Below are positions 11,811 through 30,559 of a DNA stretch of 32,000 nucleotides, piece by piece (within the stretch, counting starts at the first letter, position 1; every line of letters begins with the position of its first letter). The translations under genes and the position numbers were made by a program. The stretch is taken from contig NZ_JHUX01000009.1 of the NCBI RefSeq assembly GCF_000619845.1, positions 1 through 32,000 on the forward strand, in the 5' to 3' direction. The notes beneath the pieces were generated by a model. It was not told the origin of the DNA. It ran no database searches and worked only from the letters and a program-made list of their open reading frames with translations. The DNA comes from Alkanindiges illinoisensis DSM 15370 (GTDB taxonomy: Bacteria; Pseudomonadota; Gammaproteobacteria; Pseudomonadales; Moraxellaceae).

Positions 11811-11824
11811 TTTCGTTAACGAAA
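11811..11824. promoter_or_regulatory. Palindrome TTTCGTTAACGAAA (perfect copy 1), inside the trb operon between the trbM-like gene and trbJ
   Basis: Exact 14-bp palindrome read directly. Confidence 0.6.
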
Positions 11825-11842
11825 GTTTTAACTGGTCATTGC

Positions 11843-12259
11843 TTACCAGTTAATTTCACGTACTACATCGCTACCATCTTCCGCAGCGCCCTTGATTGTT
11901 AAAATCATGGCCTGACAACGGAAGCCCTTACCGCTTTTCCACTGGCCTCGCGTTTCACCGTCAGGACAAACATTGTTGTTTTTGCCGAGCCAACGGGTAA
12001 AAACGCCTGAAGTGTTGTAGTCGCCTGGATTACTTCCACCAGGGGAAACAAAGCTACAATGTGGGAATCCCTTTCCCTTGGCCAAATCACGAGTAACTTG
12101 ACGGATGGTCGATGCACACTCAGCAACGCCCTTACCACCGGCAAAGCATAAAAGCGCCTGACAACCATAGTTATCATCAGCTAATGCCACGCTACTGGAG
12201 AGTGCTGCCACGCTAAAAACCATAGGCAACAACGCCTGATTAATGAGTTTTGATTTCAA
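11843..12259 (-). CDS. Cys-rich periplasmic protein, TrbM-like
   Basis: Signal peptide KSKLINQALLPMVFSVAALSSSVALA-DD, then GCQALLCFAGGKG, which resembles the C-x-A-x-LC motif of TrbM-type proteins. The preferred start is the TTG at 12259, with AAGGAA 7 nt upstream. The track ATG at 12307 lies inside trbE. Confidence 0.55.
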   Translation of the reverse strand: MKSKLINQALLPMVFSVAALSSSVALADDNYGCQALLCFAGGKGVAECASTIRQVTRDLAKGKGFPHCSFVSPGGSNPGDYNTSGVFTRWLGKNNNVCPDGETRGQWKSGKGFRCQAMILTIKGAAEDGSDVVREINW

Positions 12260-14717
12260 AATTGATTCCTTTATGTTCCAGCCATTTGAAAGGCCATCCC
12301 TGGCCATCTACTTCCATAAACTCACGGATAAGCTTGTGATTATCCTTGTAATTCACTGCTACAAAGTTTAAGGCAACGCTGTCCAGACCCAGGGTAAACA
12401 TGCGTTTGCCTTCCGCACTGGTAAAATAATAGTCGCGCTTGCGGGTTGCATTCTTGAGCATATTAATTTCAGTGCTGTTTAACCCCATGATGGTATAAAG
12501 GTCATTTGGCCCTGGCACTTCAGCAGTACCGGCTTTATCCGCTTCTGGATTAGGCAACAGAATTTTGGTTGGGCATGATTCAATGAGGACATCAAAAATG
12601 CCTGAAGACACCGCATCGGTGAGTGATTGTGTGGCCATGCACACCAGACAATTGGCTTTACGCAAAACCTTTAACCATTCACGGATTTTTGCCCTGAACG
12701 CTGGGTGACCCAGCATTAACCAGGCCTCATCCAGAATCAGCATGGTTGGCCGACCATTTAAGGATTTTTCAATACGGCGGAACAGGTATAACAATACCGG
12801 CAATAAATTCGCCTCACCCATTTCCATAAGGTGTTCAATTTCAAAAACTGTCCAGTGTTCATTGCCGGTGATCAGGCCATCATGCCGGGCATCAAGCAAT
12901 GACCCTAAAATGCCGTCAATCGAATAATGCTTTAAGGCACTACGCACATCTTCATCCTGAACGGTCAGCAAGAAGTCGGTAATGGAGCGTTCCCCAGGTA
13001 CTTTTTCTTCCCGTAACAGTTTCATGGCACGGGTAACTTCGCTTTTTTGTTTTGGCGTTAACATCTGATTGGTTTGCAAATGGTAGCAAGTGCCGATCCA
13101 CTCAATTGCCCAGTTCAAGTCCACATCAGTGTCAATGGCTGATAAAGGCGCAAATGACAGGACATTTTCCTCGCCCCCGATGTCGTAGTGTTTACCACCG
13201 CAGGCCAATGATGCAGCCCAGGCAGAATTACCCTTATCAAAGGCAAATATCTGGGCATCCTTATAGCGCAGGAACTGGACGGCCAGGGTATTGAGCAATA
13301 CGGACTTACCAGCACCAGTTGGCCCAAAAATCAGGGTATGGCCAAGATCATCAACATGCAGGTTTATCCGAAACGGCGTTGCTCCATTGGTTGAGCCATA
13401 CATGAGTGGTGGCGATTGTGGGGGATAGTAAGGGCATGGGCATTCAGTACGGCCTGCCCAGATATTGCTTAATGGCAGTAAATCCGACTGATTTAGAGTA
13501 TGAATCAGGGGACGACGGACATTGGGCATCGCATGACCCGGCAGTGTCCCTAACCACGCTTCCAAGGAATTAATCGTTTCAATGCGGCAGGCAAAGCCCA
13601 GTCGTTGGATTTCCCGGACAACAAAGCGAGACTGTTCATGGACTTCCTCAAGGTTTTCACCCTGAATGACCACAATGCTGGTGAAATAACCAAAAGTGAC
13701 CAAACCGCTAGAGGCCTCGGTAATGGCATTGTTCGCATCGACCGACATTAACAAGGCATCTTCATTAATCTGGGCATTCTGGGTTTTAAAGGTCTGGGCA
13801 AAAAAGCCCCGGACTTTTTGTTTCCATTTGCGCTTGACCTTGTTCAGCTCGCTTAATGCTTCATGCTGATCCAGATAGATCATGCGACTTGACCAGCGAT
13901 AGGACAGCGGCAGCGCTTCTAATACAGCAAGAATGTTGGGATAGCTTTCAGGCGGATAGCCTTCAATGGCCACTGGGCAAATGTAGTTACTACCGACTTT
14001 TGGGGTATCGCCTGTGACCAGGACATGACCACCCAGATAGGTGTCCATGTAAGCCCCATAGGGCGGGATATTCAACTCAATGAAACGACCAGTGAGGCAA
14101 TACATCAGGTAATTGACCAGTTCATCACGCAGATGCTCACGGCCAAACTGATCAGTGACGGTATAGCCTTTCATGCGCTGCAAGGCGATAGTGCCGCCGA
14201 GTAAATCTTCAAAAGTGGCAAGCTGCTTATTAAAATAATCGAGTATCTGGTCTTGAACTGACTTCTTGGGCGTATTGGCATCATCACGCCAGATTAAGTC
14301 GTTGACTTTGGATGAAACACGCAATGGCGGCATATAGCTAATGACCATTACATATTCGGTGACATAATGGCCACCTTCCTGCTGAAAACCCTGACGGCGA
14401 TGATCGTCAATTAATTTAGAAACCGGATCAGGGAAATAGTTTCTGTTTTCTTCAGGATAATAGTTATCAGCAATTCGTGCTGCATCGTGCCAGCTCACCC
14501 AGCCATTACCAAAACGGGATAACGCAGCATTCACCCGGTTGGTAATGTAGTTACGCTCATCATTGGTGGCGCTACCAATATCATCACCACGATAAAAATA
14601 GCCCACCATGATGCTGCCGTCTTTATTCATGACAACGCCACTATCGACCAGGGCGGCATAATTTAAAATGTCCGGCAGACCTTTGGCCTTTTTCCGATAT
14701 GTTTCTAATGCGAGCAT
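12240..14717 (-). CDS. trbE: P-type T4SS ATPase TrbE (VirB4 family)
   Basis: 825 aa with Walker A (LIFGPTGAGKSVLLNTL) and Walker B (PTMLILDEAWLML). Size and position are typical. Confidence 0.95.
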   Translation of the reverse strand: MLALETYRKKAKGLPDILNYAALVDSGVVMNKDGSIMVGYFYRGDDIGSATNDERNYITNRVNAALSRFGNGWVSWHDAARIADNYYPEENRNYFPDPVSKLIDDHRRQGFQQEGGHYVTEYVMVISYMPPLRVSSKVNDLIWRDDANTPKKSVQDQILDYFNKQLATFEDLLGGTIALQRMKGYTVTDQFGREHLRDELVNYLMYCLTGRFIELNIPPYGAYMDTYLGGHVLVTGDTPKVGSNYICPVAIEGYPPESYPNILAVLEALPLSYRWSSRMIYLDQHEALSELNKVKRKWKQKVRGFFAQTFKTQNAQINEDALLMSVDANNAITEASSGLVTFGYFTSIVVIQGENLEEVHEQSRFVVREIQRLGFACRIETINSLEAWLGTLPGHAMPNVRRPLIHTLNQSDLLPLSNIWAGRTECPCPYYPPQSPPLMYGSTNGATPFRINLHVDDLGHTLIFGPTGAGKSVLLNTLAVQFLRYKDAQIFAFDKGNSAWAASLACGGKHYDIGGEENVLSFAPLSAIDTDVDLNWAIEWIGTCYHLQTNQMLTPKQKSEVTRAMKLLREEKVPGERSITDFLLTVQDEDVRSALKHYSIDGILGSLLDARHDGLITGNEHWTVFEIEHLMEMGEANLLPVLLYLFRRIEKSLNGRPTMLILDEAWLMLGHPAFRAKIREWLKVLRKANCLVCMATQSLTDAVSSGIFDVLIESCPTKILLPNPEADKAGTAEVPGPNDLYTIMGLNSTEINMLKNATRKRDYYFTSAEGKRMFTLGLDSVALNFVAVNYKDNHKLIREFMEVDGQGWPFKWLEHKGINFEIKTH

Positions 14718-14728
14718 TTTATTACCTA

Positions 14729-15025
14729 TTATTCTGTACGAAATGGCGTAGAACGAGCCAGGTAAATATCTTGGTTCTTGAATTGGCGTAAATACACCTT
14801 TGACGCTAGCGGATCAGCCGAGGCAATGCGTCTTAATAAAATTAGAGCAACGACCCATATTCCGACACCAAACAGGATTGATGACCAGGTTTTAAGCGCA
14901 AAGATCATAATTGCTGCAATAAGGCCAGCCATTAAAATCAATTCCCGTTCACACCCCAGCAATAAGCTTGGCCGTGTTAAGGCACGATTAATGGTTGAAC
15001 GTCGTAATGGAGTTTCGTTGCTCAT
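14729..15025 (-). CDS. trbD: P-type T4SS protein TrbD (VirB3 family)
   Basis: 98-aa protein with two TM segments and an N-terminal motif (LRRSTINRALTRPSLLLGCEREL) typical of TrbD/VirB3. It sits between trbC and trbE. Confidence 0.85.
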   Translation of the reverse strand: MSNETPLRRSTINRALTRPSLLLGCERELILMAGLIAAIMIFALKTWSSILFGVGIWVVALILLRRIASADPLASKVYLRQFKNQDIYLARSTPFRTE

Positions 15026-15037
15026 GAAATTACCTAC

Positions 15038-15451
15038 TTACTGATTTGAACAAGTCACTGCTGCTTGTGTATTTTCACAAGTTGGAATGGTTGCTGACTT
15101 ACCAGTCAGGTTAGTCAATACTTGGGCTGCAAATACGATGATGGAAACCACTAAAACAACCATGATCATTTTGCGGGTGAACTCATTCATTTCACCGCCA
15201 AAGATCAATGTCATACCAGTTGCAGCAATGGCCAGAATGGCCACACCAATCGCAACAGGCCCGGTCACACTATCCTTGAACTTTGTCAGTGGGTCTTCCC
15301 AAGGCATGCTGCTACTGGTGGTTGCTGCATGGGCAAAGTCAGGCATCAGTACCAGAACAGCTATAACTGCAATGGCCAATACCCAATATAAAAAGGTACG
15401 GGACTGCATAAACTGCAAATTTAATGTTGGTAGTGTAGGATTCATTGTCAT
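15038..15451 (-). CDS. trbC: T4SS pilin precursor TrbC (VirB2 family)
   Basis: Long signal peptide ending FAHA-A, two hydrophobic helices (PVAIGVAILAIAATGMTLIF; MIMVVLVVSIIVFAAQVL) and a short C-terminal extension. This is the architecture of a P-type propilin. Confidence 0.85.
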   Translation of the reverse strand: MTMNPTLPTLNLQFMQSRTFLYWVLAIAVIAVLVLMPDFAHAATTSSSMPWEDPLTKFKDSVTGPVAIGVAILAIAATGMTLIFGGEMNEFTRKMIMVVLVVSIIVFAAQVLTNLTGKSATIPTCENTQAAVTCSNQ

Positions 15452-15464
15452 AGCTCTCTTACGA

Positions 15465-16403
15465 TTAATTAATCGTGGTCAGTTGATAATCATTATTTCT
15501 GTAGCCATCGACAGAAATAATTTCTTTTACTTTGCGGCCCCCTTCGGATTTGACGATGCAAATAACGACATCAACCGCCTCAGCAATAAGTTGTTGTTGT
15601 GGAGCTGGAGTTGCTTCACTTATGAGTTGTTCCATGCGGATCAAACCGGCGCGTGCATCATTGGCATGAACTGTTGCCACACCACCAGGATGTCCAGTGT
15701 TCCAGGCTTTTAACAGGGCAAGTGCTTCCTCGCCCCGCACCTCACCCACTAAAATCCGGTCTGGCCGCAAACGCATGGTTGCCTTTAATAGTCGCAACAT
15801 GGACACATGCTCAGTCGAACGCATAATGACCACGTTTTTGGAACTACATTGGATCTCGCCGGTATCTTCGATAATGGCCAAACGATGGTCTGGCGTATAA
15901 GTTGAAATTGCTTCGATAATCGCGTTGGTTAAGGTAGTTTTTCCTGTACCTGTACCGCCAACGACCAGAATATTTTTGCGGCTTTTAACCGAAGTAATAA
16001 TCATTTCCCTCTGATAAGACGACATTATCCCGTCATTGACATAATCATCGAGGGTAAAAATCTTGTAGGCTTTCTTACGGATCGTGAACGTCGGTGCACT
16101 AACAATAGGGGGGATCAATGCCTCAAAACGGCTACCATCAATGGGAAGCTCACATTCTAAAATCGGTTTTTCACTAGTAATTGTTGTATTGATCGTGGAT
16201 GCAACAGTGGCCATTAATGATTCTGCCTGAGAAGCAACCATTTCACCGACCGGTTGCATTTCTTGTCCCAGGCGCTCAACCCATAATTTGCCATCTGGAT
16301 TGAGCATAATTTCCACTACATCTTTTTCGGTTAAAAGCTGTGTAATGGTTTGACCCAATTCACGTTGGAGCTTTTCCTTCACCCGAAGAAACTTGTCGTT
16401 CAT
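15465..16403 (-). CDS. trbB: T4SS ATPase TrbB (VirB11 family)
   Basis: Walker A (VVGGTGTGKTTLTNAI), Asp box (AIIEDTGEI), Walker B/His box (RPDRILVGEVRGEEA...NTGHPG). Confidence 0.95.
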   Translation of the reverse strand: MNDKFLRVKEKLQRELGQTITQLLTEKDVVEIMLNPDGKLWVERLGQEMQPVGEMVASQAESLMATVASTINTTITSEKPILECELPIDGSRFEALIPPIVSAPTFTIRKKAYKIFTLDDYVNDGIMSSYQREMIITSVKSRKNILVVGGTGTGKTTLTNAIIEAISTYTPDHRLAIIEDTGEIQCSSKNVVIMRSTEHVSMLRLLKATMRLRPDRILVGEVRGEEALALLKAWNTGHPGGVATVHANDARAGLIRMEQLISEATPAPQQQLIAEAVDVVICIVKSEGGRKVKEIISVDGYRNNDYQLTTIN

Positions 16404-16725
16404 TAACGTCAGTATCCTTAAAAAACACAGTGAGATACTTCACCGCATTGTATTTAGTCTCAATATGCGAATAGAGCCTGTCTAAACTTGACCATACTCG
16501 CGGTTGTTTCTTGGTATTAACCAGCAGTAATTCTTCATCTTTCCACGATAACGTCACATAAATGTGAAAGCCTTTACCTTCAGGCGTTGGCGCAATCTTG
16601 ATTTGTTTAACTGCATTAGCTCTTGCGTTATCGACAAGGGTTGATTCTTGGATGGTGTTCATGTCCGTTAATTCTTCCGCTGGAACTGGATAAGTCGGAC
16701 ATACTAAATGTTTCAAGATCGCCAT
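16360..16725 (-). CDS. Hypothetical protein (up to 121 aa), first ORF of the trb transcription unit; start uncertain
   Basis: The ORF overlaps the trbB start by 44 nt. Neither the ATG at 16725 nor the internal ATG at 16662 (MNTIQEST...) has a convincing SD. No family was recognised. Confidence 0.4.
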   Translation of the reverse strand: MAILKHLVCPTYPVPAEELTDMNTIQESTLVDNARANAVKQIKIAPTPEGKGFHIYVTLSWKDEELLLVNTKKQPRVWSSLDRLYSHIETKYNAVKYLTVFFKDTDVNERQVSSGEGKAPT

Positions 16726-16813
16726 GCTAATAGTTAAATATCTCTATAACGAATTATAGAATATCATCTAAACGTAGTATAGCAAGTCGATTTTATGAAT
16801 TTATATATAACGA

Positions 16814-16840
16814 GTTAACGAAATAGTATATTTCGTTAAT
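16814..16840. promoter_or_regulatory. Rearranged palindrome: GTTAACGAAAT-(5-6 nt)-ATTTCGTTAA (half-sites in swapped order) in the region upstream of the trb operon
   Basis: Read directly. The arms TTAACGAAAT and ATTTCGTTAA are inverted repeats built from the same half-site as TTTCGTTAACGAAA. Confidence 0.45.
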
Positions 16841-17051
16841 TGAAGGCAATAAAATAGATAGGGATGAATATTTTTAAGCATTTAAAACAATACCTTATTA
16901 AAAAAAACGAACGATAAAGTTCTTTATCTGAAGTAAACCTAAGAAATTATTAACTGAATAGACAGAATGTTCTGTCCAATAATTCTAAAACAGAAAAATT
17001 ACAGGGTCGATACCCTAATTGATAAAATTTGTCATTTAAGTTATTTTTTTG

Positions 17052-17297
17052 TCACAGGAACATGTCGGAAATTGTCTTTTTTAATGCGAATGTGACCAGT
17101 GCCATCTTTTCAAAGCTAATGTTTACACGACCGTTTTCAATGGCTGATATTTGTGGTTGCGTTTGGCCAGTTTTTTGACCTAGCTCTAATTGGGATAAGG
17201 AAGCGTTTTTGCGGTAGCGTTTGACGTTTAGACCAAATTGGACTTTTAAAAGTTGCACCGCCTTCTGGCTTTCAGGTAGCATCGCATTTTTACTCAT
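17052..17297 (-). CDS. XRE-family HTH transcriptional regulator (81 aa)
   Basis: LNVKRYRKNASLSQLELGQKTGQTQPQISAIENGRVNISFEKM is a canonical Cro/CI-type HTH. Confidence 0.85.
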   Translation of the reverse strand: MSKNAMLPESQKAVQLLKVQFGLNVKRYRKNASLSQLELGQKTGQTQPQISAIENGRVNISFEKMALVTFALKKTISDMFL

Positions 17298-17329
17298 CTT
17301 TTATCCGCATTCCCTCGTACTGCATACTT

Positions 17330-17791
17330 ATGAATTATACGCCTTATCATGCCATTGGTAGATTATTTGCCATAGAAGAATTAGCCAATCCGATCCTGGC
17401 GGCCAACAAGGACAATCAGACCTTTAGCACCCCGATTGACCAAACCAAGCTACACAATACCATTACGGCAATCCATACCTCGGCCAGCACAATGGTGCAA
17501 AACCGGCTGAAGCAACTGGAAAATGACACCAAAACAAAAATGGATGATCAAAGGCTGGATACTTTTTTAAATCTGGACAGTAATCAGCTTGCCTTACTGC
17601 AACAGGCCTATATTAATGAACGTACTGCCATTAAGCGTTGTAATGTCTTTAAGACGATTCGTCTACGGAAAAATTTGAGTATTGATGAGGCTGCTGAAGG
17701 CTTGAAACTCAATCGTCGTAACCTTCAGGCATGGGAAGCACATAAAAAAAACTGCCCAATTGATGCCATTAAACGACTTGAGCAGTTATAA
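17330..17791 (+). CDS. Hypothetical protein (153 aa) with a C-terminal HTH-like segment, divergent from the XRE gene
   Basis: The C-terminal IRLRKNLSIDEAAEGLKLNRRNLQAWEAHKK resembles an XRE-type HTH. The N-terminal two thirds are unrecognised. Confidence 0.55.
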   Translation: MNYTPYHAIGRLFAIEELANPILAANKDNQTFSTPIDQTKLHNTITAIHTSASTMVQNRLKQLENDTKTKMDDQRLDTFLNLDSNQLALLQQAYINERTAIKRCNVFKTIRLRKNLSIDEAAEGLKLNRRNLQAWEAHKKNCPIDAIKRLEQL

Positions 17792-17803
17792 GATAAAAAT
17801 CAA

Positions 17804-18082
17804 TTAAAACAGGTCAGCATGTGATCCGCACCGGGCTAAAATCAATTCCTGATTGTCCCAATCCACGTCCCAGATCAGTAAGAAATCCGGTTGCACATGG
17901 CATTCCATGTGGGGCTTCCAGTTCCCAACTAAGGGATGTGGCTTATATTCATCCGGGACAGTTCCTGTTTTCACTAAATGCTCATCAATAAGCTGTAGTA
18001 GTAAATCTGTATCCTTTTTAGGATCATTTAATGCCCGTTTTAAATCTTTTTTAAACTGCTTTTTAATCCTGATTATCAGCAT
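17804..18082 (-). CDS. yafQ: Type II toxin, YafQ/RelE family mRNA interferase
   Basis: KKQFKKDLKRA...YKPHPLVGNWKPHMECHVQPDFLLIWDVD...LARCGSHADLF matches the YafQ signature (H-P-L-x-G-x-W-x-x-x-x-E-C-H-x-x-P-D-x-L-L-I...G-[ST]-H-x-[DA]-L-F). It overlaps the upstream antitoxin gene by 20 nt. Confidence 0.9.
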   Translation of the reverse strand: MLIIRIKKQFKKDLKRALNDPKKDTDLLLQLIDEHLVKTGTVPDEYKPHPLVGNWKPHMECHVQPDFLLIWDVDWDNQELILARCGSHADLF

Positions 18083-18410: not shown

Positions 18411-18424
18411 TTTCGTTAACGAAA
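18411..18424. promoter_or_regulatory. Palindrome TTTCGTTAACGAAA (perfect copy 2) in the dinJ / parA divergent control region
   Basis: Exact 14-bp palindrome. It lies 52 bp upstream of the -35 of the putative parA promoter. Confidence 0.6.
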
Positions 18425-18662: not shown

Positions 18663-19403
18663 ATGAAAATAATTACGATTGCAAATCAAAAAGGCGGCGT
18701 CGGAAAAAGTGCGCTGAGCCTGCATATTGCTTTTTACCTGCATGAGCTGGGTAAAAAAGTGGTGTTCATTGATCTTGACCCACAAGGTAACAGCTCAAGC
18801 GTACTGGGTAAGACTGACTTTCAGGCGGTGGCTTCGGCCAGCAGTTTATTTCAGGACAACTTTAGCCTGGATATGCCCCTACCCCATGCTGTTTTATTGA
18901 AAGGTGATGCCAGCCTGGTCAATAACCTGGATATAAAGTTGTTTGTGCAGAACATGAATCAACTCATCAAGTCTATTGATGATGACACCATTTGCATTGT
19001 CGATACCGCCCCAACCGCTAGTGCCTTACAGATTGCCCCGCTTATTGTCAGTGATAGCGTGGTATCCCCGATTGAGCTTGAAAGTTTTTCCATAGCCGGG
19101 ATTGCCAGTATCCTCAACACCCTAAACAACATTAAGGAACAATATAACCCTCGGCTGAATTTTTTAGGGATTGTTCCTAACCGGGTTAAAGGGGTCAGTC
19201 ATCGCCAGCTCACCCTGTTGGAACAGCTAAAGACGTCCTACTCACAATACCTGCTCGACCCTGAATTTAAGATTAATGAGCGTCAGGCCATACCAGAGGC
19301 CTTGGATCAGGGCATCCCGGTATGGCGGCTTGGCAAGACCTCTGCCCGTGATGTGGGCAAGGAAATGAAAGCTGTCGTTTCTAAAATATATCAATCAATT
19401 TAG
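18663..19403 (+). CDS. parA: Partition ATPase ParA (IncC-like, deviant Walker A)
   Basis: MKIITIANQKGGVGKSALSLHIA is a KGGxGKS deviant Walker A, and VVFIDLDPQGN follows. The preferred start is the ATG at 18663, with AAGGA 6 nt upstream. The track TTG at 18636 is less likely. Confidence 0.9.
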   Translation: MKIITIANQKGGVGKSALSLHIAFYLHELGKKVVFIDLDPQGNSSSVLGKTDFQAVASASSLFQDNFSLDMPLPHAVLLKGDASLVNNLDIKLFVQNMNQLIKSIDDDTICIVDTAPTASALQIAPLIVSDSVVSPIELESFSIAGIASILNTLNNIKEQYNPRLNFLGIVPNRVKGVSHRQLTLLEQLKTSYSQYLLDPEFKINERQAIPEALDQGIPVWRLGKTSARDVGKEMKAVVSKIYQSI

Positions 19404-19410: not shown

Positions 19411-20427
19411 ATGATGAATTTGGATGCACTCAATAACTTAAATATCGGTTCCCTGGTTGGCAAGCCAAGCCGTACCCAGAATACCAAGGATCAACTGCAT
19501 ATTGACCTTGCCTTGATTGAAGAAGACCCGTTAAACGTCCGTCTGGTGTTCGATGAAGACAAATTACAGGCACTGGCGGATACCATTCGGGAAAATGGGG
19601 TATTGACCCCTATTTCAATTCGCCCCAATCCTGACAAGTCCGGGCATTTTATTATTAATAACGGTGCTCGACGTTTTAGGGCATCTACCCTGCTTGGCTT
19701 AAAATCCATTCCGGCGTTTATTGATGAGCAGCATGATGAAATCAATCAAATGATTGATAATCTGGAGCGTGAGGATTTAACACCGCTTGAGATTGCTCAG
19801 AAGATTTATAAGCTGGCCAATCATGAAGATAAGGCCAAGCGCCTTAAAAAAGAAGACATTGCAAAACGGCTTGGTGCAAAACCGGCATGGGTATCCAAGC
19901 ATTTAAAACTGCTTGAAATGCCTGAAAAACTCAAGTTCCTGTATGACATGAAACGCTGCAACGACCTTGAAGCCTTATATGCCATTAGCTCGGCCTATAA
20001 GAAATATCCTCATCAAATTGACAAATGGCTGGATTCCTTTAAGGACAGTTCTGACATTATTACCCAGCAGGCCGCCAATGCGTTTTTAAACAAGTTAAAG
20101 GAAAAGGATAAGCCCAAAGCGGCTAGCCCTATCGCTGAGCAGGATGAAGCTTCTGTAGACCGTGCTAGTCGGCCTGATAATACTGAGTATGAAGCTGCTG
20201 AAGCCGGTGAAAATTTTGATAGTAATGACAATGCAGGGACTAAAGACCGGTCAATTGGCCAGCAGTCTTCCAATGAGTCATTCAAGTCAGGCCATGATCT
20301 CAAGTTTATCAGTATTTCTTTGGTCGGCAGTGATGAGCAGCATCAACAGATTACCCAGCAGCTCCAAGAATTTTTAAAACAAATCGAGCAGCAGTATCCA
20401 ACCGCCCAGCTTGAGCTGCAAAGTTGA
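19411..20427 (+). CDS. parB: ParB/KorB-family partition and DNA-binding protein
   Basis: N-terminal ParB box (ENGVLTPISIRPN...FIINNGARRFRASTLLG), a central HTH region (LTPLEIAQKI...KEDIAKRLGAKPAWVSKHLKLL) and an acidic, low-complexity C-terminal half. It lies directly downstream of parA. Confidence 0.85.
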   Translation: MMNLDALNNLNIGSLVGKPSRTQNTKDQLHIDLALIEEDPLNVRLVFDEDKLQALADTIRENGVLTPISIRPNPDKSGHFIINNGARRFRASTLLGLKSIPAFIDEQHDEINQMIDNLEREDLTPLEIAQKIYKLANHEDKAKRLKKEDIAKRLGAKPAWVSKHLKLLEMPEKLKFLYDMKRCNDLEALYAISSAYKKYPHQIDKWLDSFKDSSDIITQQAANAFLNKLKEKDKPKAASPIAEQDEASVDRASRPDNTEYEAAEAGENFDSNDNAGTKDRSIGQQSSNESFKSGHDLKFISISLVGSDEQHQQITQQLQEFLKQIEQQYPTAQLELQS

Positions 20428-20436: not shown

Positions 20437-20462
20437 CAGAACTTTCGTTAACGAAAGTTCTG
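20437..20462. promoter_or_regulatory. 26-bp perfect palindrome CAGAACTTTCGTTAACGAAAGTTCTG (contains perfect copy 3) between parB and the korA-like gene
   Basis: Read directly. The core is at 20443-20456. Confidence 0.6.
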
Positions 20463-20482: not shown

Positions 20483-20821
20483 ATGATGAAAAAATCAGGC
20501 TACCAGGGCATTCTGACACAAGAACAATATGATGCACTACTGCCCACTTTGGCAAACTTTTCAGAAGAACGTAAACAGGCCTGCTACCTGGTCATGGTCA
20601 AAGGCATGCCAGCCACCGAAGTTGCCAATCAGTTCAGCAAAACCCGGCAGTGGCTAAATGATGCGCTAATCAAGGTTTATGACAAATATGTTCAGGTCAA
20701 TTACCCGAGTGATTGGCAAACCATTACCGTCCGGGTTCCCCCACATCTTGCCGTTATCATCAGAGGCATGGAACAAAAGGCACTGGACTTGCTAAAGCAA
20801 CAGATTAGAAAGTTAAAATAA
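20483..20821 (+). CDS. korA: KorA/TrfB-family transcriptional repressor (about 112 aa)
   Basis: The layout parallels RK2 KorA as I recall it. LTQEQYDAL.. matches LTESQFQEA.. at the N-terminus. A central HTH follows (ATEVANQFSKTRQWLNDALIKV). The C-terminal ..WQTITVRVPPHLAVIIRGMEQKA matches ..YARVTAVLPEHQAYIVRKWEADA. The start is placed at ATG 20483 because the track start at 20411 would read through the palindrome. Confidence 0.6.
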   Translation: MMKKSGYQGILTQEQYDALLPTLANFSEERKQACYLVMVKGMPATEVANQFSKTRQWLNDALIKVYDKYVQVNYPSDWQTITVRVPPHLAVIIRGMEQKALDLLKQQIRKLK

Positions 20822-23565: not shown

Positions 23566-23581
23566 CTTTCGTTAACGAAAG
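23566..23581. promoter_or_regulatory. 16-bp perfect palindrome CTTTCGTTAACGAAAG (perfect copy 4) in the divergent region between the nuclease gene and orf117
   Basis: Read directly. It lies 62 bp upstream of the -35 of the orf117 promoter. Confidence 0.6.
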
Positions 23582-24477: not shown

Positions 24478-25005
24478 AAAAGGACGTTTTGTCCAGATAG
24501 AAAGGACGCTTTGTCCTTTTAAAAAGGACGTTTTGTCTGATTAAAAGGGACATTTTGTCCATTTAAAAAGGACGTTTTGTCTTAAAAGGGACGTTTTGTC
24601 CAAAAATAACCTAAATTTCAGCTTTTAAAAGGACGTTTTGTCCAAATAATGATTAATAAATGACCATGGAAAGGACGTTTTGTCCGGCCAGCATGTAGGT
24701 TTGATTAAAATATCACCATAGAAAGGACGTTTTGTCCAAAACCAGCTTAATTTTTAATCTTAAAAAGGACGTTTTGTCTTAAAAAGGACGTTTTGTCCTA
24801 AGCTGGACTAAATCTTAGCTATTCATGTCCTTTTTAGATGTAAAGTCAGATTGACTAAATGTTGATTCTCATTTTGAGTATTTGTTATCCAGTCTTTAGA
24901 TGAAATCTTTCAACTTAGGGTCATGTTTTAAGTCGCCTTGTTCTACTTTAGAATCTAAAAAAGGACGCTTTGTCCAAGATAAATCTAAAAAAGGACGTTT
25001 TGTCC
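24478..25005 (+). repeat. oriV iteron array: 13 direct repeats of about AAAGGACGTTTTGTCC
   Basis: Cores start at 24481, 24503, 24525, 24547, 24569 (exact 22-bp phasing), then 24588, 24630, 24672, 24724, 24766, 24785, 24962 and 24992. All are in the same orientation with minor variants (GGGAC, CGCTTT, GTCT). The array is immediately upstream of a Rep_3-type gene. Confidence 0.9.
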
Positions 25006-25091
25006 CGAATTTTACAATTGCCCCTAATATTATAAACTTATGATTTAAAGCATATAATTTATCTAACATTCTATCTCGTATAATTTTTTTC

Positions 25092-25126
25092 AAAAAAGGA
25101 CTTTATAATTCAATTATTCCTTTTTT
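25092..25126. promoter_or_regulatory. Imperfect palindrome AAAAAAGGA...TCCTTTTTT enclosing TATAAT (25104-25109); candidate rep promoter/operator built from the left half of the iteron
   Basis: The 9-bp outer arms are perfect and the inner ATAATT-C-AATTAT is also palindromic. AAAGGAC equals the iteron left half. It lies 44 bp upstream of the rep ATG. Confidence 0.5.
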
Positions 25127-25169
25127 AGGTTTACAATAGTGTTAGTCAAAGAATGAATGGATAAAAATA

Positions 25170-26219
25170 ATGGCGGAAAACAGTAACAGCCAGCTCGCCT
25201 TGTATGTGCAACCGGACGATTTACTGGTTACCAGCAATTTACTCGTAGATACCAATATTGAAGTCACCATTAACGAGATCAAGATCATTTATCTGGCAAT
25301 GGTGGCTGCCAGAAACATGAAAAATTTTGACAGTAATGTCTATGTCAAAGTGCATTCAAAAAACTTTGCCGAGTTAACTGGCCAGAAAGAAGAATCTGCA
25401 AAAAAGGTTATGTTCAGGGCGATTGAAACCCTTAAAGGCAGATCGGTTGAGTTTGAGGAAAAAAACCTAAACAATCCCAAACGTGATTCAATCACTGTGG
25501 TGCCGGTATTAAGTGGCATTCGCTATTATAAGGATGAACATGCTTTAGAGTTGCGCTTTACCCCGGAAGTCATACCGCATTTTACCAAGCTGGTTAACGG
25601 CAATTTTACAGTTAACAAGATTGGTTATCTGATGAAACTCGATAGCCTGTATGCAATGGAGTTTTACCGGTTTTTAAGAAAGGAAAACTTTAAGGATAAA
25701 GTGCTGATCCTGACACTGGAGCAAATCCGTATTTTCTTTAATGTAGTGGGTAAATACGACGATATTAAGGATTTAAAAGCCCGTGTGATTGACATTGCTG
25801 TTGACCAGATCAATGCCCACACAGACATTATGGTCAATTATGAAAATGTCAGAACGGGACGAAAAGTTACCGGCCTGAAATTTGATTTTGCTGAAAAACC
25901 AAAACAGCTCACGCTTGATAAGCCTGCTGGTACTGGAAAAGTGGCTGGAACCAGTCCGAATCAGGAATTGCAGGATTTTATCAACACAGGCATCAACCAA
26001 GCCAATTATAAAATCATCAAGCCGACACTGACGGATTTTGATAACCGTAAAAATCAGGTTGAAGGCTTAAAGTATCTGTATGAAATCGCAAAACGTGCGA
26101 AAGTTTCACCGGATTTATTGATTTACCGGTTATCTTTGGAAGTGACTAAAGATAAAAACGTGATTTTTAATTACAACACGCTGGTTGGCTATGCTTTTAA
26201 TCTTGCCAATGAGCAATAG
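25170..26219 (+). CDS. rep: Replication initiator, Rep_3 (RepB/pi-like, iteron-binding) family
   Basis: Iterons lie upstream. Rep_3-like motifs are present: LDSLYAMEFYRFLRK, LTLEQIRIFF, DIKDLKARVIDIAVDQINAHTDIMVNYENVRTGRKVTGLKFDF. Confidence 0.9.
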   Translation: MAENSNSQLALYVQPDDLLVTSNLLVDTNIEVTINEIKIIYLAMVAARNMKNFDSNVYVKVHSKNFAELTGQKEESAKKVMFRAIETLKGRSVEFEEKNLNNPKRDSITVVPVLSGIRYYKDEHALELRFTPEVIPHFTKLVNGNFTVNKIGYLMKLDSLYAMEFYRFLRKENFKDKVLILTLEQIRIFFNVVGKYDDIKDLKARVIDIAVDQINAHTDIMVNYENVRTGRKVTGLKFDFAEKPKQLTLDKPAGTGKVAGTSPNQELQDFINTGINQANYKIIKPTLTDFDNRKNQVEGLKYLYEIAKRAKVSPDLLIYRLSLEVTKDKNVIFNYNTLVGYAFNLANEQ

Positions 26220-26243
26220 ACTTTCGTTAACGAAAGTCTATTG
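26214..26243. promoter_or_regulatory. 30-bp perfect palindrome CAATAGACTTTCGTTAACGAAAGTCTATTG (contains perfect copy 5) overlapping the rep stop codon, between convergent rep and traM
   Basis: Read directly. The core is at 26222-26235. Confidence 0.6.
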
Positions 26244-26266
26244 GTGAGTTTTACTTCATTTGTCAA

Positions 26267-26698
26267 TCAGATTTTGAAGAAAATTATAATGAGAGCCAAT
26301 AAAATAAGCGCACATAGGCCAATTAGCCCGTATAGCAGTAACGTTACCCTGTCCAGCTCAGGCTTAGGGTTGATAACTTGCTGGGCTTGCTGAACCTGAA
26401 TTGCCTTAATCTGATCGCAGACCTCATCGACAGACTTTTGAAACTGCTGCTTCATGTACTGGCCGCTTTCAGTGATAAGCTGGCTTGCGATTTTTTTTGA
26501 GGCCTCTATGGAATCACTTTGCAGGATTGCTATGGATTGCTCATATTCATCCATTTTAAGCTGAAAATCTGAGATATAGCGTTTCAATAGTAATTCATTG
26601 AGCGTGAGTGTTACTAAAATTGGATCTGATTTATCCAGTAATACATGATGCTTCTTGGCGACTTCAGCGATCAGCTCAGCTATAAAATCCTCATTCAT
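26267..26698 (-). CDS. traM: IncP-type conjugal transfer protein TraM-like (143 aa, C-terminal TM)
   Basis: The N-terminus IAEVAKKHHVLLDKSDPILVTLTLNELLLKR parallels RP4 TraM (..IAAKHGIAVGRDDPILILHTINARL..) as I recall it. There is a C-terminal membrane anchor. It lies downstream of traL. Confidence 0.65.
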   Translation of the reverse strand: MNEDFIAELIAEVAKKHHVLLDKSDPILVTLTLNELLLKRYISDFQLKMDEYEQSIAILQSDSIEASKKIASQLITESGQYMKQQFQKSVDEVCDQIKAIQVQQAQQVINPKPELDRVTLLLYGLIGLCALILLALIIIFFKI

Positions 26699-26705
26699 AG
26701 GTCAC

Positions 26706-27449
26706 CTACATCACAATATCAAGTTGCTCAAACAAGCTTTTCTTGATCATTTTAAGCCGTTGTTTGGCCATCAGTTCAAATTCACTTGATGTAATTGCTT
26801 CATTGAAGGTTAAGCGTTTATCCTGCATAAGCTGAATATCCTGCTCAAACGTCTGGGCAGCCCGTTTAGGGATCGTAATAATACCGGACACTTTATCCTT
26901 GTTATCGGTATAGGCCTTTAGCTTTTCAAAGCTTTTTTCCTGTACCTCTACTTTGCCAAAGTATTCATTGAGCCAGACCACATTTTTCACATAAGGCGGC
27001 GTATTGTTCACCATTTGCGAAAAGCCGTTTAGGGTATCCATCAAGGCTTGGCCACCGGTAATGACGCTATGGATCACGACCTGCTTGCCACAGTCCTTGA
27101 GCATTTCCATTGCATTGTTTTCCACCAGATACCCAAACAATGGAATAAATGAAGCTGCCCCATTATCGACAATCACGTCCTGTGAGCTTTCAATGATCAT
27201 TTCCATCATGCTGTCAAATTGACGGGTATCAATCACATTGTTTTCGCGCATCAGCTCAATGCGATGGGCATTTAATGCTTTATAGCCTAAAAAGGTTGCA
27301 TTCACCGGATCAGTGTCAATGCACAGCGGCGTTTCATTTTTTTCTAAATAATATTGCGCCAGGATTGAGGCGATAAAACTTTTTCCGACACCGCCCTTGC
27401 CTTGCAAGATCAGATTAACTTCAGCCGGTTTATGATTTTCTGTACTCAT
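26706..27449 (-). CDS. traL: IncP-type TraL-like P-loop (ParA/MinD-fold) protein
   Basis: Deviant Walker A LILQGKGGVGKSFIAS plus CIDTDPVN. At 247 aa it matches the RP4 leader operon in size and in its position between traK and traM. Confidence 0.8.
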   Translation of the reverse strand: MSTENHKPAEVNLILQGKGGVGKSFIASILAQYYLEKNETPLCIDTDPVNATFLGYKALNAHRIELMRENNVIDTRQFDSMMEMIIESSQDVIVDNGAASFIPLFGYLVENNAMEMLKDCGKQVVIHSVITGGQALMDTLNGFSQMVNNTPPYVKNVVWLNEYFGKVEVQEKSFEKLKAYTDNKDKVSGIITIPKRAAQTFEQDIQLMQDKRLTFNEAITSSEFELMAKQRLKMIKKSLFEQLDIVM

Positions 27450-27458
27450 TATTTATCC

Positions 27459-27842
27459 TCAGATTAAATTGTCAGGGTTTGGGTTTGGATCAAAGTTAAA
27501 ACTTTTTATGCTGCTATCGTTCCCGGTTTTTTTCTTGAGGGCGGGTGAACTTTCATTATGGGGTACATCAATTTTTGGCAAGCCTTCAGTGGCCACTGGC
27601 AAGTCAGGGGTACTGACCACAGGTGCAATTTTTAGCTGGCTTAATGTCTTGCGCGCAGTCTGGGTATAGCCCTTAGCCGCACTGATTCGTTGAAACTGGC
27701 TATAGGACAAGCCTTCTTTCACGGTTGGCAATTCCTCATAAATATCCAGTAATGAGTATCCCTGAAGGAATAATTCATTAAATTTTTCAAAATTCTGGAG
27801 CCAAAGTTTTAGCCCGGTGTTTCGCCTAGCTCTTTGTTTCAT
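27459..27842 (-). CDS. traK: TraK-like oriT-binding protein (127 aa)
   Basis: First gene diverging from oriT. The N-terminal basic/HTH-like part (LQGYSLLDIYEELPTVKEGLSYSQFQRISAAKGY) and Pro-rich C-terminus resemble RP4 TraK in layout. Confidence 0.6.
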   Translation of the reverse strand: MKQRARRNTGLKLWLQNFEKFNELFLQGYSLLDIYEELPTVKEGLSYSQFQRISAAKGYTQTARKTLSQLKIAPVVSTPDLPVATEGLPKIDVPHNESSPALKKKTGNDSSIKSFNFDPNPNPDNLI

Positions 27843-28226
27843 CTTGACCTTGTTATCAGCGTTTATATGCTTCTATAAGCGATTTTAAGCGTTTATATGC
27901 TCATAAACTATTACATTTTCGTTCTATAAGCGATTTTATGCGTTTATAGGCGATAAATCCCCCTTTTGGTGTTTCTGATCATCCCCTAGGCGATTATAGT
28001 CTATTATAAGCGTTTATAGGCGATTACAGTTTAATATTGGAAGGCAAGATGTGTGTTGTAATATTACATGCAAGCATGTACCATGACAACACCTACACTT
28101 ATTCGCTTTCAGCTCAACGTGTCATCTTGCCCTACGGGGTCGGTTTTACCTGTCGGTAAAACAAAATCTTGCTCATTGAGCAAGATTTATAAAGAATGTG
28201 CGTTTTGGGTTTTTAGGGTTGTCACG
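27843..28226. other. oriT region between divergent traK and traJ: phased repeats, inverted repeats and RP4-like nic motifs
   Basis: It lies between the leader operon and the relaxase operon. It contains about 9 copies of RGCG(A/T)TT at spacings close to multiples of 10 bp (27858-28026), the palindrome TACATGCAAGCATGTA (28065-28080), and ATCTTGCC motifs resembling the RP4 nic sequence ATCCTG/CCC. Confidence 0.75.
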
Positions 28227-28604
28227 ATGGTCGATAGCGAACAGGAAGCGGGGCCGAAAAAGGGCAAGCGGAACCGGGTATCAGTCCCCAGTTATTTTTT
28301 ACCTGAAGAAAAGTTACTGCTTGAGGAAAAGGCCAAACAGTGCAGCTTATCGGTATCAAATTACATTCGGGATGTGAGTTTAGGCTATCAGCCAAAATCC
28401 ACGAGCGATGCCAAAGCCGTGCTTGAGCTGGTCAGGATCAATGCTGACTTAGGACGTTTAGGTGGTTTGTTAAAACTGCTATTAACGGATGAAGGCAAGC
28501 ATCTGGATGCAAAAGCGCACCGGCCACAGATTAATGAGCTGCTGCATCAAATCGGCGAGTTGCAGACGCAACTTAAAATTGAGGTTACGAGAATCAGGAA
28601 ATGA
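28227..28604 (+). CDS. traJ: Relaxosome accessory protein TraJ/MobC-like (RHH)
   Basis: RVSVPSYFLPEEKLLLEEKAKQCSLSVSNYIRDVSLG is a MobC/TraJ-type ribbon-helix-helix. At 125 aa from ATG 28227 the size matches. The stop overlaps the traI start (ATGA). The track start at 28068 would read through oriT repeats. Confidence 0.8.
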   Translation: MVDSEQEAGPKKGKRNRVSVPSYFLPEEKLLLEEKAKQCSLSVSNYIRDVSLGYQPKSTSDAKAVLELVRINADLGRLGGLLKLLLTDEGKHLDAKAHRPQINELLHQIGELQTQLKIEVTRIRK

Positions 28605-30559
28605 TTGCCAAGCGTGCAAAGAAAAGTGCTAGTCGTAGTTTAGTCAAAACTTACTGCTACATTGTGGACGTGAAAAACCGTTCAGCTTTGCAAGGCGTGG
28701 ATGCTGGATCAAAAGTAGGGGATATCCGCTTTACCAATCTGGCCAGTCAGGATTTGGACATGGCTTTAATTGAAATGGAATCCCTGCAAGCTTTAAACAC
28801 CCGTTCCAAATCGGATAAGAATTATCACCTGATTATTTCCTTTCCCATCCATGAAAAGCCTGACGCGCAGATTTTAGAAAATATCGAACATGATTTATGC
28901 GCGGCCATTGGCTTTGACGAACATCAACGGGTATCAGCCACCCATAATGACACTGACCATCTGCATTTACATATCCTGATCAACAAAGTTCACCCGGACA
29001 CCTACAATAATATTGAGCCATTTTATGACTATAAGACCTTAATGGCAGAGTGTGAGGTCATCGAGGCAAAATATGGCCTTACCAAAACCAACCACACCAG
29101 TAAAAATCAAACCCAAGCCAGCAGCCAAGAAATCTTTAATGATGAGCAAAGCCTTATTTCTTTCGTTAACGAAAATTTAAAAGAAAAAATGAAAGAGGCG
29201 ACAAGCTGGCAGGGAATGCACGAGCTATTAGCCGACCATGACTTAATTATTGCCAAGCGTGGGGCAGGGCTTGTGGTTAAAAACAGTGAAGGCATTGCCA
29301 TAAAAGCATCCAGCATTGCCAGGGAATTTTCATTTAGAAAATTAACCGATCATTTAGGTGAGTTTGAGGAGTTTAACCATGAGCACCGAGATAGACCCGC
29401 AGACACCCATGCAAGCCCTGGAAACGATAGAGCCGGTAGAGCCGGTAGAGCCGGAACATTCCCTGGAAACGCTGGAATTTCAGTTACAGGAAATGGTCAT
29501 GGCAGAGCAGGGGGACGTGACGCATTTGGAGCCTTCCGAATGGATGAGCAAGGTCATCGCTCGCTTACCAATGGCCAAGCGTCCCTTGACACTGTGCGTT
29601 CGCTGTCCGGGGGCGATATGGTTCGTCAACAGCCAGGAAGTGAAATGCTTTTGTCGGGTGATGAGATTAGAGACATACAGCAAAAAAGAGCCGAACAATT
29701 TGCAAGATTGCGATGGACTAGAAATCGCATGGGCAGAAATGCAGCAGGCCTAAGCTATCAGAATCATAAACAACCACTGGCCAGTAAACAGGGTAGCCCC
29801 CTATATTCATCATATCTGGTTGACCGCAAAAACCGCCAGATCATGCAGCGCCAGATCAGGGCAACCCTACAAGCTGAAAGTGCAAAATTCTACCAGCAGT
29901 TGCAACACTGGCACGAAGCCCGTAGCCAGATTATCAAAAAATCAAAACTACGCAGTACCGAACGCAAGCTGGAATGGAAAAAGCTGGCTAATGAGCGTCA
30001 GGCATTTATCCAGCAATTCAAGAAAAAACAGGCGCAGCAGCGTGAGGCTATTCCAAAATTACTCGACTGGCCACAATTTCTAAAACAGCAGGCCTTAAAG
30101 GGTGATGAGCTTGCCGTTGAAAGCTTGCGTAAACGGGCTAAGGATAATTTTAAGCTCTATGACAACCAGATTCTAGGCTTGCCGGAAAAGACGTTTATTT
30201 ACCATTCCTTAAAACCAGAAGTGAGAAAAAACGGCTCTATCGTATACCAGCTTCGGGATGGGGGTAGCATTGTTGACCGGGAAGCGGATTTACAGGTCGA
30301 GCAGATTACCCAGCCAGCCGCATTTTTAGCCCTGACAATGGCCAAGGATAAGTTTGGCGCGCGCCCGTTAGAAATTAATGGCAGTGATGATTTTAAAAAT
30401 GCACTGATTGAGGCAGCCGTAGAGCACCGTTTAAATGTCACATTTGCCAATCAGGATATGGAAAAAATACGCACCCGCAAAATGGGTGAGCTTGCCAAAC
30501 AACCGCCACAACAATCAAATCAACAAGATGAAGCAATAAAACGAGGTAAATCAAGATGA
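28601..30559 (+). CDS. traI: MOB-P type relaxase TraI
   Basis: His-triad motif HNDTDHLHLHILINKVHP (RP4 TraI has H-x-D-x-D-x-x-H-x-H). N-terminal Tyr region (SLVKTYCYIV). It lies directly downstream of traJ and its stop overlaps the traG start. Confidence 0.9.
   Translation: MIAKRAKKSASRSLVKTYCYIVDVKNRSALQGVDAGSKVGDIRFTNLASQDLDMALIEMESLQALNTRSKSDKNYHLIISFPIHEKPDAQILENIEHDLCAAIGFDEHQRVSATHNDTDHLHLHILINKVHPDTYNNIEPFYDYKTLMAECEVIEAKYGLTKTNHTSKNQTQASSQEIFNDEQSLISFVNENLKEKMKEATSWQGMHELLADHDLIIAKRGAGLVVKNSEGIAIKASSIAREFSFRKLTDHLGEFEEFNHEHRDRPADTHASPGNDRAGRAGRAGTFPGNAGISVTGNGHGRAGGRDAFGAFRMDEQGHRSLTNGQASLDTVRSLSGGDMVRQQPGSEMLLSGDEIRDIQQKRAEQFARLRWTRNRMGRNAAGLSYQNHKQPLASKQGSPLYSSYLVDRKNRQIMQRQIRATLQAESAKFYQQLQHWHEARSQIIKKSKLRSTERKLEWKKLANERQAFIQQFKKKQAQQREAIPKLLDWPQFLKQQALKGDELAVESLRKRAKDNFKLYDNQILGLPEKTFIYHSLKPEVRKNGSIVYQLRDGGSIVDREADLQVEQITQPAAFLALTMAKDKFGARPLEINGSDDFKNALIEAAVEHRLNVTFANQDMEKIRTRKMGELAKQPPQQSNQQDEAIKRGKSR
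29161..29174. promoter_or_regulatory. Palindrome TTTCGTTAACGAAA (perfect copy 6), intragenic in traI (encodes F-V-N-E)
   Basis: Exact 14-bp palindrome read directly. Confidence 0.5.
29379..29753 (+). CDS. Nested out-of-frame ORF inside traI (124 aa from ATG 29379); TraH-like overprinted gene candidate
   Basis: SD GAGGAG lies 7 nt upstream of ATG 29379. The product has an acidic N-terminus and a Cys-rich C-terminus (CVRCPG...CFCRV) and looks protein-like. The overlapping stretch of TraI is low-complexity (DRAGRAGRAGTFPGNAG...). RP4 traH is likewise encoded within traI in another frame. Confidence 0.5.
   Translation: MSTEIDPQTPMQALETIEPVEPVEPEHSLETLEFQLQEMVMAEQGDVTHLEPSEWMSKVIARLPMAKRPLTLCVRCPGAIWFVNSQEVKCFCRVMRLETYSKKEPNNLQDCDGLEIAWAEMQQA

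Follow-up and report, generated by a model that had tools for sequence, protein, structure and literature searches.

The first 32,000 nucleotides of contig NZ_JHUX01000009.1 of Alkanindiges illinoisensis DSM 15370 (assembly GCF_000619845.1; hereafter the window) are identified by Pfam scans as a conjugative plasmid backbone whose trb/tra modules are IncP-like and which also carries a Rep_3 replicon and the cluster parA-korB-korA. Dispersed over this backbone is a 14-bp palindrome, TTTCGTTAACGAAA. Its copies are probably where the KorB encoded by this plasmid binds specifically and loads; they would correspond to the OB sites of IncP plasmids and to parS, and make up a combined loading-site, operator and centromere network. 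This reading is built on sequence comparison and on analogy with characterised KorB proteins, and is carried by the perfect conservation of the motif, by the positions that it shares between plasmids, and by the co-variation of the palindrome with the KorB residues that align with known DNA contacts.

Abundance and placement of the palindrome

Scanning the whole window returned six perfect copies and one 13/14 variant, seven in total (Table 1), at the positions given in an earlier reading made from the sequence alone (the sequence-only reading). The placement which that reading had described was also reproduced, with copies inside the trb operon and traI, near promoters, in the gap between parB and the korA-like gene, and between convergent gene pairs. 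Its rearranged half-site pair proved real, being a perfect 11-bp inverted repeat (16815-16839), and its remark that the motif differs from the IncP operators held as well, since the canonical IncP OB and OA sequences are both absent from the window. Where it had given 52-62 bp to two promoters, the sites end 52 bp (parA) and 63 bp (117-aa ORF) from the -35 hexamers of two consensus-like promoters.

This abundance far exceeds the chance expectation, for which 100 dinucleotide-preserving shuffles of the window were used. Allowing up to two mismatches, seven sites are observed against a mean of 0.18, and none of the 100 shuffles reaches seven; allowing up to three adds just two sites (16623 and 16831), with 1.9 expected by chance. 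Six of the seven copies are intergenic in a region (11-30.6 kb) of which 15% is intergenic, corresponding to a binomial P of 7e-5, a value to be read with the caveat that intergenic DNA is poorer in GC (31% vs 44%) and that its AT-richness somewhat favours the palindrome there. No copies were found in positions 1-11800, which hold the distal trb genes, a topoisomerase III gene, a TetR-family gene (2471-3034) and a 390-aa open reading frame (ORF). A further word, CAATGGCCA, was dismissed, its 10 occurrences being mainly coding and unorganised.

Conservation in related Moraxellaceae plasmids

A near-identity search of PLSDB (megablast) with the window found no close plasmid, returning two matches of 43-97 bp only, and an exact look-up of the window KorB gave one 2.9-kb contig only. 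A contig of Alkanindiges illinoisensis NFYY 23406 (L007) is 92-96% identical to the window over three segments, and tblastn with KorB recovered a group of Acinetobacter plasmids at 51-56% identity. The identical 14-mer occurs five to six times in each of pYH16056-2 (L001), pLS488 (L003), pALWED2.2, pBDT2091-6, an Acinetobacter contig (L008) and the further contigs L137 and L139, and most of these seven have one 13/14 copy besides. A motif count in related plasmids, as proposed in the sequence-only reading, therefore gives 5-6 perfect copies for each of the pLS488-type plasmids examined. KorB of these plasmids is 44-55% identical to that of the window and ParA 40-44%, and the 100-bp flanks of shared sites are 45-60% identical, near the level of unrelated AT-rich sequence. 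Between pYH16056-2 and pLS488 the site flanks are 61-81% identical. Throughout, the core is 14/14 in every plasmid compared.

Three positions are common to the window and its relatives, namely after the korB stop codon, before trbJ, and in or beside the parA/korB operon. A copy directly past the korB/parB stop codon is present in every motif-bearing relative, at the following positions: L001 (2969), L003 (18196), L004 (38199), L007 (11033), L008 (11217), L133 (20293), L137 (9102) and L139 (11301). The copy before trbJ (copy 1) has counterparts in pLS488 (9330), pYH16056-2 (11844), L004, L008, L133 and L139, although the DNA flanking it is merely 50-60% identical to theirs. The Acinetobacter plasmids have korA upstream of parA and the window has it downstream of korB; in both arrangements the site remains with korB. 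In pYH16056-2 and pLS488, lepB and a recombinase gene contain copies that are placed at identical codon offsets and are translated as FVNE. Around most copies, in the window as in all Acinetobacter relatives, the palindrome extends beyond its core by 0-2 bp, with a flanking base preference of T/A in the pLS488-type plasmids vs C/G in the window.

In 62 kb of DNA from other Moraxellaceae or proteobacteria that includes distant KorB relatives (L009-L011), the motif does not occur, and no published description of the 14-mer, including in the pLS488-type plasmids, was found in the searchable literature. The closest related backbone without the motif is that of Acinetobacter sp. ESL0695 (L002; NZ_CP113937). 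L002 has repeats of other kinds: downstream of parB (1228-1945), a 21-bp iteron (TTTGAAAAAATCCTTCTCGCT) in about 17 copies, and at 20368-22487 a 2-kb array of 84/105-bp repeats that leads from the 3' end of an annotated ORF into a stretch lacking annotation.

KorB as the candidate reader of the palindrome

The window KorB comprises a ParB_N CTPase-type domain (GARRFRAS; PF02195, E=8e-16) and a KorB DNA-binding domain (PF08535, E=3e-16, profile positions 3-88 of 89), after which a disordered linker leads to a short C-terminus that is helical. Its segment NNGARRFRAS aligns with INHGARRYRGS of RK2 KorB, the GxRRxR box, and is invariant in the motif clade. Structural matches in PDB include the cytidine triphosphate (CTP)-bound RK2 KorB (8QA8, E=7e-44), the operator-binding domain 1R71 (E=9e-26) and the ParB 6SDK (E=4e-20). 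An AlphaFold2 model has a mean predicted local distance difference test score (pLDDT) of 67 and is confident over residues 30-233, including the DNA-binding domain at 125-233. KorA, encoded next to korB, belongs to the TrfB/KorA family (PF16509) and matches KorA-domain proteins in PDB with E=1e-6 and RK2 KorA with E=4e-4.

Applying the same simple palindrome count to other KorB plasmids provided a positive control. It recovered TTTAGCSGCTAAA, the experimentally known IncP OB, in eight copies from pMNBM077 (L134; KorB 40% identical to that of the window) and in seven from Xylella pSal1 (L135; 34%), and the 14-mer TTAGTCATGACTAA in ten copies from pHH1107 (L005, FJ012881; 35%). In the LowGC-type pHH1107, TTAGTCATGACTAA is dispersed over 11409-29942 with one copy after korB, and of the five copies of a second palindrome, GTCCACAGGTGGAC, four lie 28-29 bp from TTAGTCATGACTAA; the two look like an OB/OA-type pair of that plasmid family.

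The palindromes co-vary with residues expected to read them. In 2004 Khare et al. are reported to have found that T211 and R240 of RK2 KorB make base-specific contacts from outside the helix-turn-helix. When placed through alignment with 1R71, these positions are T/R in the plasmids with canonical OB, K/R in pHH1107, and E/Q in the window (E187 and Q219) and in all plasmids that share its motif. Together with the lack of canonical OB and OA, E187 and Q219 point to a different specificity rather than a different mechanism. Further signatures, AW(V/I)SKHL in the recognition helix, C-x-DLEA and TQ, are invariant in the 22 members of the motif clade, the L002 equivalents being NTWVSKHL, ITSLDA and SQ. 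A contig carrying the KorB_C-containing homologue P0034 (L136), which has similar contact residues, was also considered; at 3.4 kb it was too short, and it has no repeated palindrome.

Among the backbone proteins compared, KorB is the sole one whose order of similarity tracks the motif, with 50-53% identity to the window in motif-bearing plasmids and 42% in the motif-less L002. For the others L002 is the closer: KorA is 35-36% identical in motif-bearing plasmids and 39% in L002, ParA 40% and 43%, topoisomerase 57-58% and 61%, the TraM-like protein 32% and 43%, TraJ 35-37% and 50%, and TraI 35-36% and 42%. The predicted recognition helix of KorA reads KTRQWLNDALIKV vs LQRQVVNKSVSKV in two clades that share the motif, that of the window being nearer to the helix of L002. 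As KorB similarity and contact residues track the motif and those of KorA do not, KorB is the best candidate for the binder and KorA an unlikely one, and on these comparisons we regard KorB as more likely than KorA. The domain assignments bear out the KorB-like ParB, with ParA beside it, and the KorA-like repressor of the sequence-only reading, and its interpretation of the palindrome as a KorB-type operator or centromere is supported by the perfect motif conservation, the shared positions and the co-variation.

Proposed mechanism

The mechanism that we posit is drawn by analogy with KorB of RK2 and RA3, from which binding, clamping, partition, repression and the role of KorA are all inferred. 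A KorB dimer would recognise the 14-bp core through its central helical DNA-binding domain, bind CTP through the N-terminal domain with the GxRRxR box, close to form a clamp, and spread or slide from the site. Together with ParA, the KorB-DNA complexes would constitute the partition centromere, for which the copy after korB (copy 3) is the best candidate and most likely the primary element. From sites 50 bp to about 1.6 kb away KorB would also repress backbone promoters, those proposed being parA-korB, relBE, the 117-aa ORF, rep, trb and traJ/traK, and KorA may assist in this repression. Every putative backbone promoter (trb, rep, traJ/traK) lies within about 1.6 kb of a site. RK2 KorB loads at OB, forms a CTP-dependent clamp, slides to about 1.5 kb and is latched by KorA at promoters, and the OB sites lie either close to their target promoters (4-10 bp upstream) or at a distance ('OB distal') of 45 bp to more than 1,000 bp upstream (PMC11790492). 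RA3 KorB binds parS after the korB operon and three operators, acting both as centromere binder and as global repressor (PMC7414963). The distances seen here, 52-63 bp at two promoters and up to about 1.6 kb elsewhere, fit the 'OB distal' and 1.5-kb sliding ranges of RK2.

Several observations weigh against this proposal. The independent lineages behind the co-variation are few, consisting of two clades with the motif and a single close outgroup, and no alternative KorB palindrome was found in L002, where only iteron arrays and long coding repeats were seen, so that the co-variation lacks a matched 'other operator' for the closest outgroup. An exact-motif scan of metagenomes found the 14-mer on at least 120 contigs, all but two of which carry a single copy, with different flanks, and neither a KorB homologue nor a new family member was present among the matches listed; the motif alone is thus not diagnostic. 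KorB_C (PF06613), the SH3-like beta-barrel dimerisation domain of RK2-type KorB, has no match at E<=0.01 in the window KorB, although many more distant KorB homologues do have it. The C-terminus of the window protein does not align with the RK2-type tail and is modelled as a disordered linker (237-296) followed by a single helix (308-328). At the RK2 latch residues, KorB F249 aligns with K and KorA Y84 with V, in alignments which span distant sequences and may be shifted, a conserved F lying three residues earlier in KorB. Since the latch residues do not appear to be conserved, cooperativity with KorA cannot be assumed. No second palindrome family that could represent a KorA operator was found in the window, including its intergenic regions, and no site lies 4-10 bp upstream of a promoter, the proximal arrangement of some RK2 promoters. 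The shared promoter box and 5' untranslated region (UTR) box described below were rejected as KorA operators, neither being palindromic. These departures from RK2 weaken the case for strict membership of the RK2 KorB family and for the part assigned to KorA, rather than the claim that KorB, as a ParB-type protein, reads a network of sites.

The departures may also be read jointly. The Moraxellaceae KorB clade could be a mechanistically distinct silencer, with another dimerisation tail and a KorA unable to use the Y84-F249 latch, in which some sites, as perfect palindromes of 26-30 bp, double as terminators or roadblocks and a second regulator reads the everted half-site at the trb promoter. 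We consider this combination conceivable but doubtful; if it were true, long-range silencing would operate here without an RK2-type KorA clamp-lock.

Alternative explanations

KorB might use the palindromes purely for partition, as so many parS sites, in the way of chromosomal ParB with its dispersed and often intragenic parS, and play no global part in transcription; this is a serious possibility, if on balance an unlikely one. The copy after korB is the one universally conserved position, several others are intragenic or lie between convergent genes far from promoters, neither a promoter-proximal site nor a KorA operator was found, and the latch residues do not appear to be conserved, all of which would suit a purely centromeric function. 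A wider role is favoured by the KorB-type DNA-binding domain with its adjoining korA gene, by the sites 52 and 63 bp upstream of two promoters with a common 16-bp box, the distances differing by 11 bp or one helical turn, and by the precedent of RK2 and RA3, in which KorB is both centromere binder and global repressor (PMC11790492, PMC7414963). Less probable still, in our view, is an operator that is read by KorA or by some other regulator of the plasmid instead of by KorB. KorA is encoded 27 bp downstream of one site, the everted half-sites at the putative trb promoter suggest that two proteins could read related sequences, and IncP-1 KorA and KorB operators have half-site sequence in common. 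The KorA recognition helix nevertheless differs at about half of its positions between clades with an identical 14-mer, the window KorA is nearer to that of the motif-less L002, and the site follows korB, not korA, upon the change in gene order. Intragenic positions and positions between convergent genes are also atypical of KorA operators, which in RK2 overlap promoters. As for another regulator, the window encodes an 81-aa HTH_3 protein (17052-17297) for which the pLS488-type plasmids have no homologue.

The palindromes might be RNA or DNA hairpins, such as bidirectional terminators or cruciforms, rather than protein recognition sites. Copies 3 and 5 are the cores of 26- and 30-bp perfect palindromes whose differing flanks resemble compensatory change, their predicted RNA hairpins reach -16.0 and -18.7 kcal/mol, respectively, copy 5 is terminator-like, and three sites lie at gene ends. 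These two hairpins are strong because the flanks lengthen the palindrome, however; the bare core gives -1.7 kcal/mol, and most copies extend by just 0-2 bp. A structural element would not need 14/14 identity across otherwise unalignable plasmids, and in pLS488 and pYH16056-2 a separate conventional terminator hairpin follows the copy after parB. We therefore hold a structural origin to be highly improbable, while copies 3 and 5 may have a secondary role as terminator or roadblock. There seems to be next to no chance that the motif lacks a specific link to the maintenance genes and instead recurs throughout the host or on mobile DNA, be it as an uptake-type sequence, as a transposon end or as a restriction-related GTTAAC context. 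The core does include GTTAAC, the HpaI recognition site. Among the metagenomic contigs with the 14-mer (at least 120), moreover, 50 have it in the context CAGTGTGAT-TTTCGTTAACGAAAACGAAAA(N)GAAAAATAACG, frequently where the contig ends (e.g. L015 2261, L022 2496, L060 1741), and this context resembles the end repeat of an abundant, unrelated element, mobile or repetitive. Against this explanation, the metagenomic matches listed are nearly all single, differ in their flanks and come without KorB, whereas the plasmid copies lie in backbone DNA at shared positions, and the motif is absent from L009-L011, from L002 and from the first 11.8 kb of the window. One metagenomic match near a parA gene (L098) proved unrelated.

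Individual sites and backbone features

Table 1. Palindrome copies, related sites, putative promoters and principal genes in the window
Feature	Position	Strand	Context or assignment
Copy 1, perfect	11811..11824		trb operon, intergenic between a 154-aa ORF (after trbE) and the trbJ/VirB5-like gene
trbB-to-trbI type IV secretion operon	~16403 down to 5871	minus	followed by the topoisomerase III gene
Everted half-sites	16815..16839		TTAACGAAATA-GTA-TATTTCGTTAA; perfect 11-bp inverted repeat, 3-nt spacer
Putative trb-operon promoter	16818-16790	minus	-35 hexamer overlapped by the everted half-sites
YafQ/RelB toxin-antitoxin pair		minus (relB)	adjoining copy 2
relBE promoter	18388-18360	minus	TTTGCA-17-TACAAT; -35 hexamer 22 bp from copy 2
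Copy 2, perfect	18411..18424		between the divergent relBE (minus) and parA-korB (plus) promoters
parA-korB promoter	18476-18505	plus	TTGACA-18-GATACT; copy 2 ends 52 bp from the -35 hexamer
parA, incC-like partition ATPase	18663..19403	plus	Pfam AAA_31 (PF13614), CbiA (PF01656), MipZ
korB	19411..20427	plus	Pfam PF02195, PF08535, PF17762
Copy 3, perfect	20443..20456		korB stop codon +16 bp; ends 27 bp before the korA ATG
korA, TrfB/KorA-family small repressor	20483..20821	plus	PF16509, E=2e-10
13/14 copy, TTTCGTTAAAGAAA	22287..22300		within a longer near-palindrome, between convergent genes
Copy 4, perfect	23567..23580		ends 63 bp upstream of the -35 hexamer (23643) of the 117-aa ORF promoter (ATG 23740)
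Rep_3 initiator gene (rep)	25170-26219		downstream of iterons
Copy 5, perfect	26222..26235		between convergent rep and traM
Copy 6, perfect	29161..29174		within traI; encodes FVNE

The 26-bp perfect palindrome centred on copy 3 spans 20437-20462, and the 30-bp one around copy 5 spans 26214-26243, takes in the rep stop codon and was flagged as terminator-like, so that this copy may double as a terminator. L007 differs from the window at two sites: the segment of the 13/14 copy has been swapped for other genes which bring a perfect copy of their own (L007 13876), and the equivalent of copy 4 has an 8-bp palindromic extension on each side. Copy 6 is lineage-specific, the TraI of relatives reading HFLKEN or NFVSEN at this place and lacking the site. 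The everted half-sites can be given an inner reading, AACGAAA-N7-TTTCGTT at 16817-16837, or can alternatively be taken as two degenerate palindromes (10/14 and 11/14) with centres 21 bp apart. They are absent from the pLS488-type plasmids compared and kept in L007, which says little since the region is 96% identical, and whether they are part of the palindrome network is uncertain.

Around the sites, the backbone has further repeated elements. The promoters of parA and the 117-aa ORF belong to a promoter/5' UTR cassette that is repeated in the window (18463-18556 and 23630-23733, respectively), and both carry ATGTAAAGTGTTATTG, overlapping the -35 hexamer. A UTR box, TGTGTGGCyaasGCyrCGAAGGA, follows about 30 nt (parA) or about 40 nt (117-aa ORF) past the -10 hexamer, with an ATG 5-8 nt later, and can fold a small hairpin (GUGGC-N4-GCyrC) before the Shine-Dalgarno sequence in which stem pairing is kept and the loop varies. 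Five copies of the box precede different genes in L007 (9123, 13319, 13905, 14306 and 15332). The cassette could act in translation or regulation and have been spread by recombination, and on account of the box, ORFs that seemingly start with MCGQG... probably start at the next ATG. Between the box and parA, which may instead start at a TTG (18636), lies a 27-aa ORF (MSNPVIGDVFYSLFGATLGAIFINFGG, 18563-18646) that is kept in L007 and could encode a leader peptide or a small membrane peptide.

At least 13 iterons with the consensus AAAGGACGTTTTGTCC occupy 24475-25004 at a spacing of 19-61 bp in a region of 30% GC, and two more lie directly upstream of the Rep_3 gene; the array probably marks oriV. 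In the IncP-like transfer origin region, the minus strand carries traM, traL and a traK-like gene, and the plus strand a NikA-like gene with the traI relaxase gene after it. Between the traK-like and NikA-like genes (27853-28038), TATAAGCGATTTTAAGCGTTTATAKGC and a shorter version of 19 nt make up three to four direct repeats, which are probably sites for relaxosome accessory proteins at oriT.

Comparison with known systems

With the palindrome, a family of conjugative plasmids from Moraxellaceae gains a precise candidate operator/centromere sequence; the OXA-23 carbapenemase gene is carried by some of these plasmids, including pLS488 and pBDT2091-6. Being invariant, the 14-mer could serve as a simple marker for this backbone in assemblies and as a target for incompatibility-based plasmid curing. 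A second, divergent KorB system, differing in DNA specificity, in C-terminal domain and in the position of korA, would also bear on the generality of the 2025 CTP-clamp/KorA-latch model of RK2.

The system is similar to that of the IncP-1 plasmids (RK2/RP4, R751) in that a protein with ParB_N and KorB DNA-binding domains is encoded next to parA (incC), a homologue of KorA/TrfB is present, and a short AT-flanked palindrome (TTT...AAA) is scattered over the backbone in promoter-distal positions, between genes and within them, at a promoter spacing inside the 'OB distal' range (PMC11790492). It differs in its operator, TTTCGTTAACGAAA being an even palindrome of 14 bp and TTTAGCSGCTAAA having a 13-bp core, which places the outer TTT/AAA blocks one base further apart than in OB. 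Further differences from IncP-1 are E and Q at the positions of RK2 T211 and R240, the lack of KorB_C (PF06613), the apparent lack of conserved Y84/F249, the location of korA downstream of korB instead of upstream of incC, the lack of a recognised KorA operator, and a Rep_3 replicon with iterons in place of TrfA. In the IncU plasmid RA3, with the order korA-incC-korB-orf11-parS, KorB has its parS just behind the korB operon (PMC7414963), and the one invariant position of the palindrome described here is likewise directly after korB. Unlike the seven copies per 32 kb seen here, several of them intragenic or between convergent genes, RA3 is reported to have one parS and three operators, and its gene order and accessory genes (korC, kfrA, kfrC) are different. 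Chromosomal ParB (Spo0J) shares the CTP-binding ParB fold (6SDK) and the use of several identical palindromes, some of them intragenic, as loading sites; its parS is a 16-bp sequence, and the window protein differs from it by the KorB-type DNA-binding domain, the plasmid setting, the KorA partner and the expected role in transcription.

The pLS488-type plasmids (pLS488, pALWED2.2, pYH16056-2, pBDT2091-6 and pIHIT7853-like plasmids) have the same 14-mer, with positions in common with the window, and a KorB of the same subfamily without KorB_C, and are set apart by the gene order korA-parA-parB and by their replication genes, which are annotated as RepB-primase-type. The kind of system is one already known from IncP-1 and IncU, and it introduces no new principle; what is new is the operator sequence, its perfect conservation across two lineages of Moraxellaceae plasmids, and the variant architecture of KorB.

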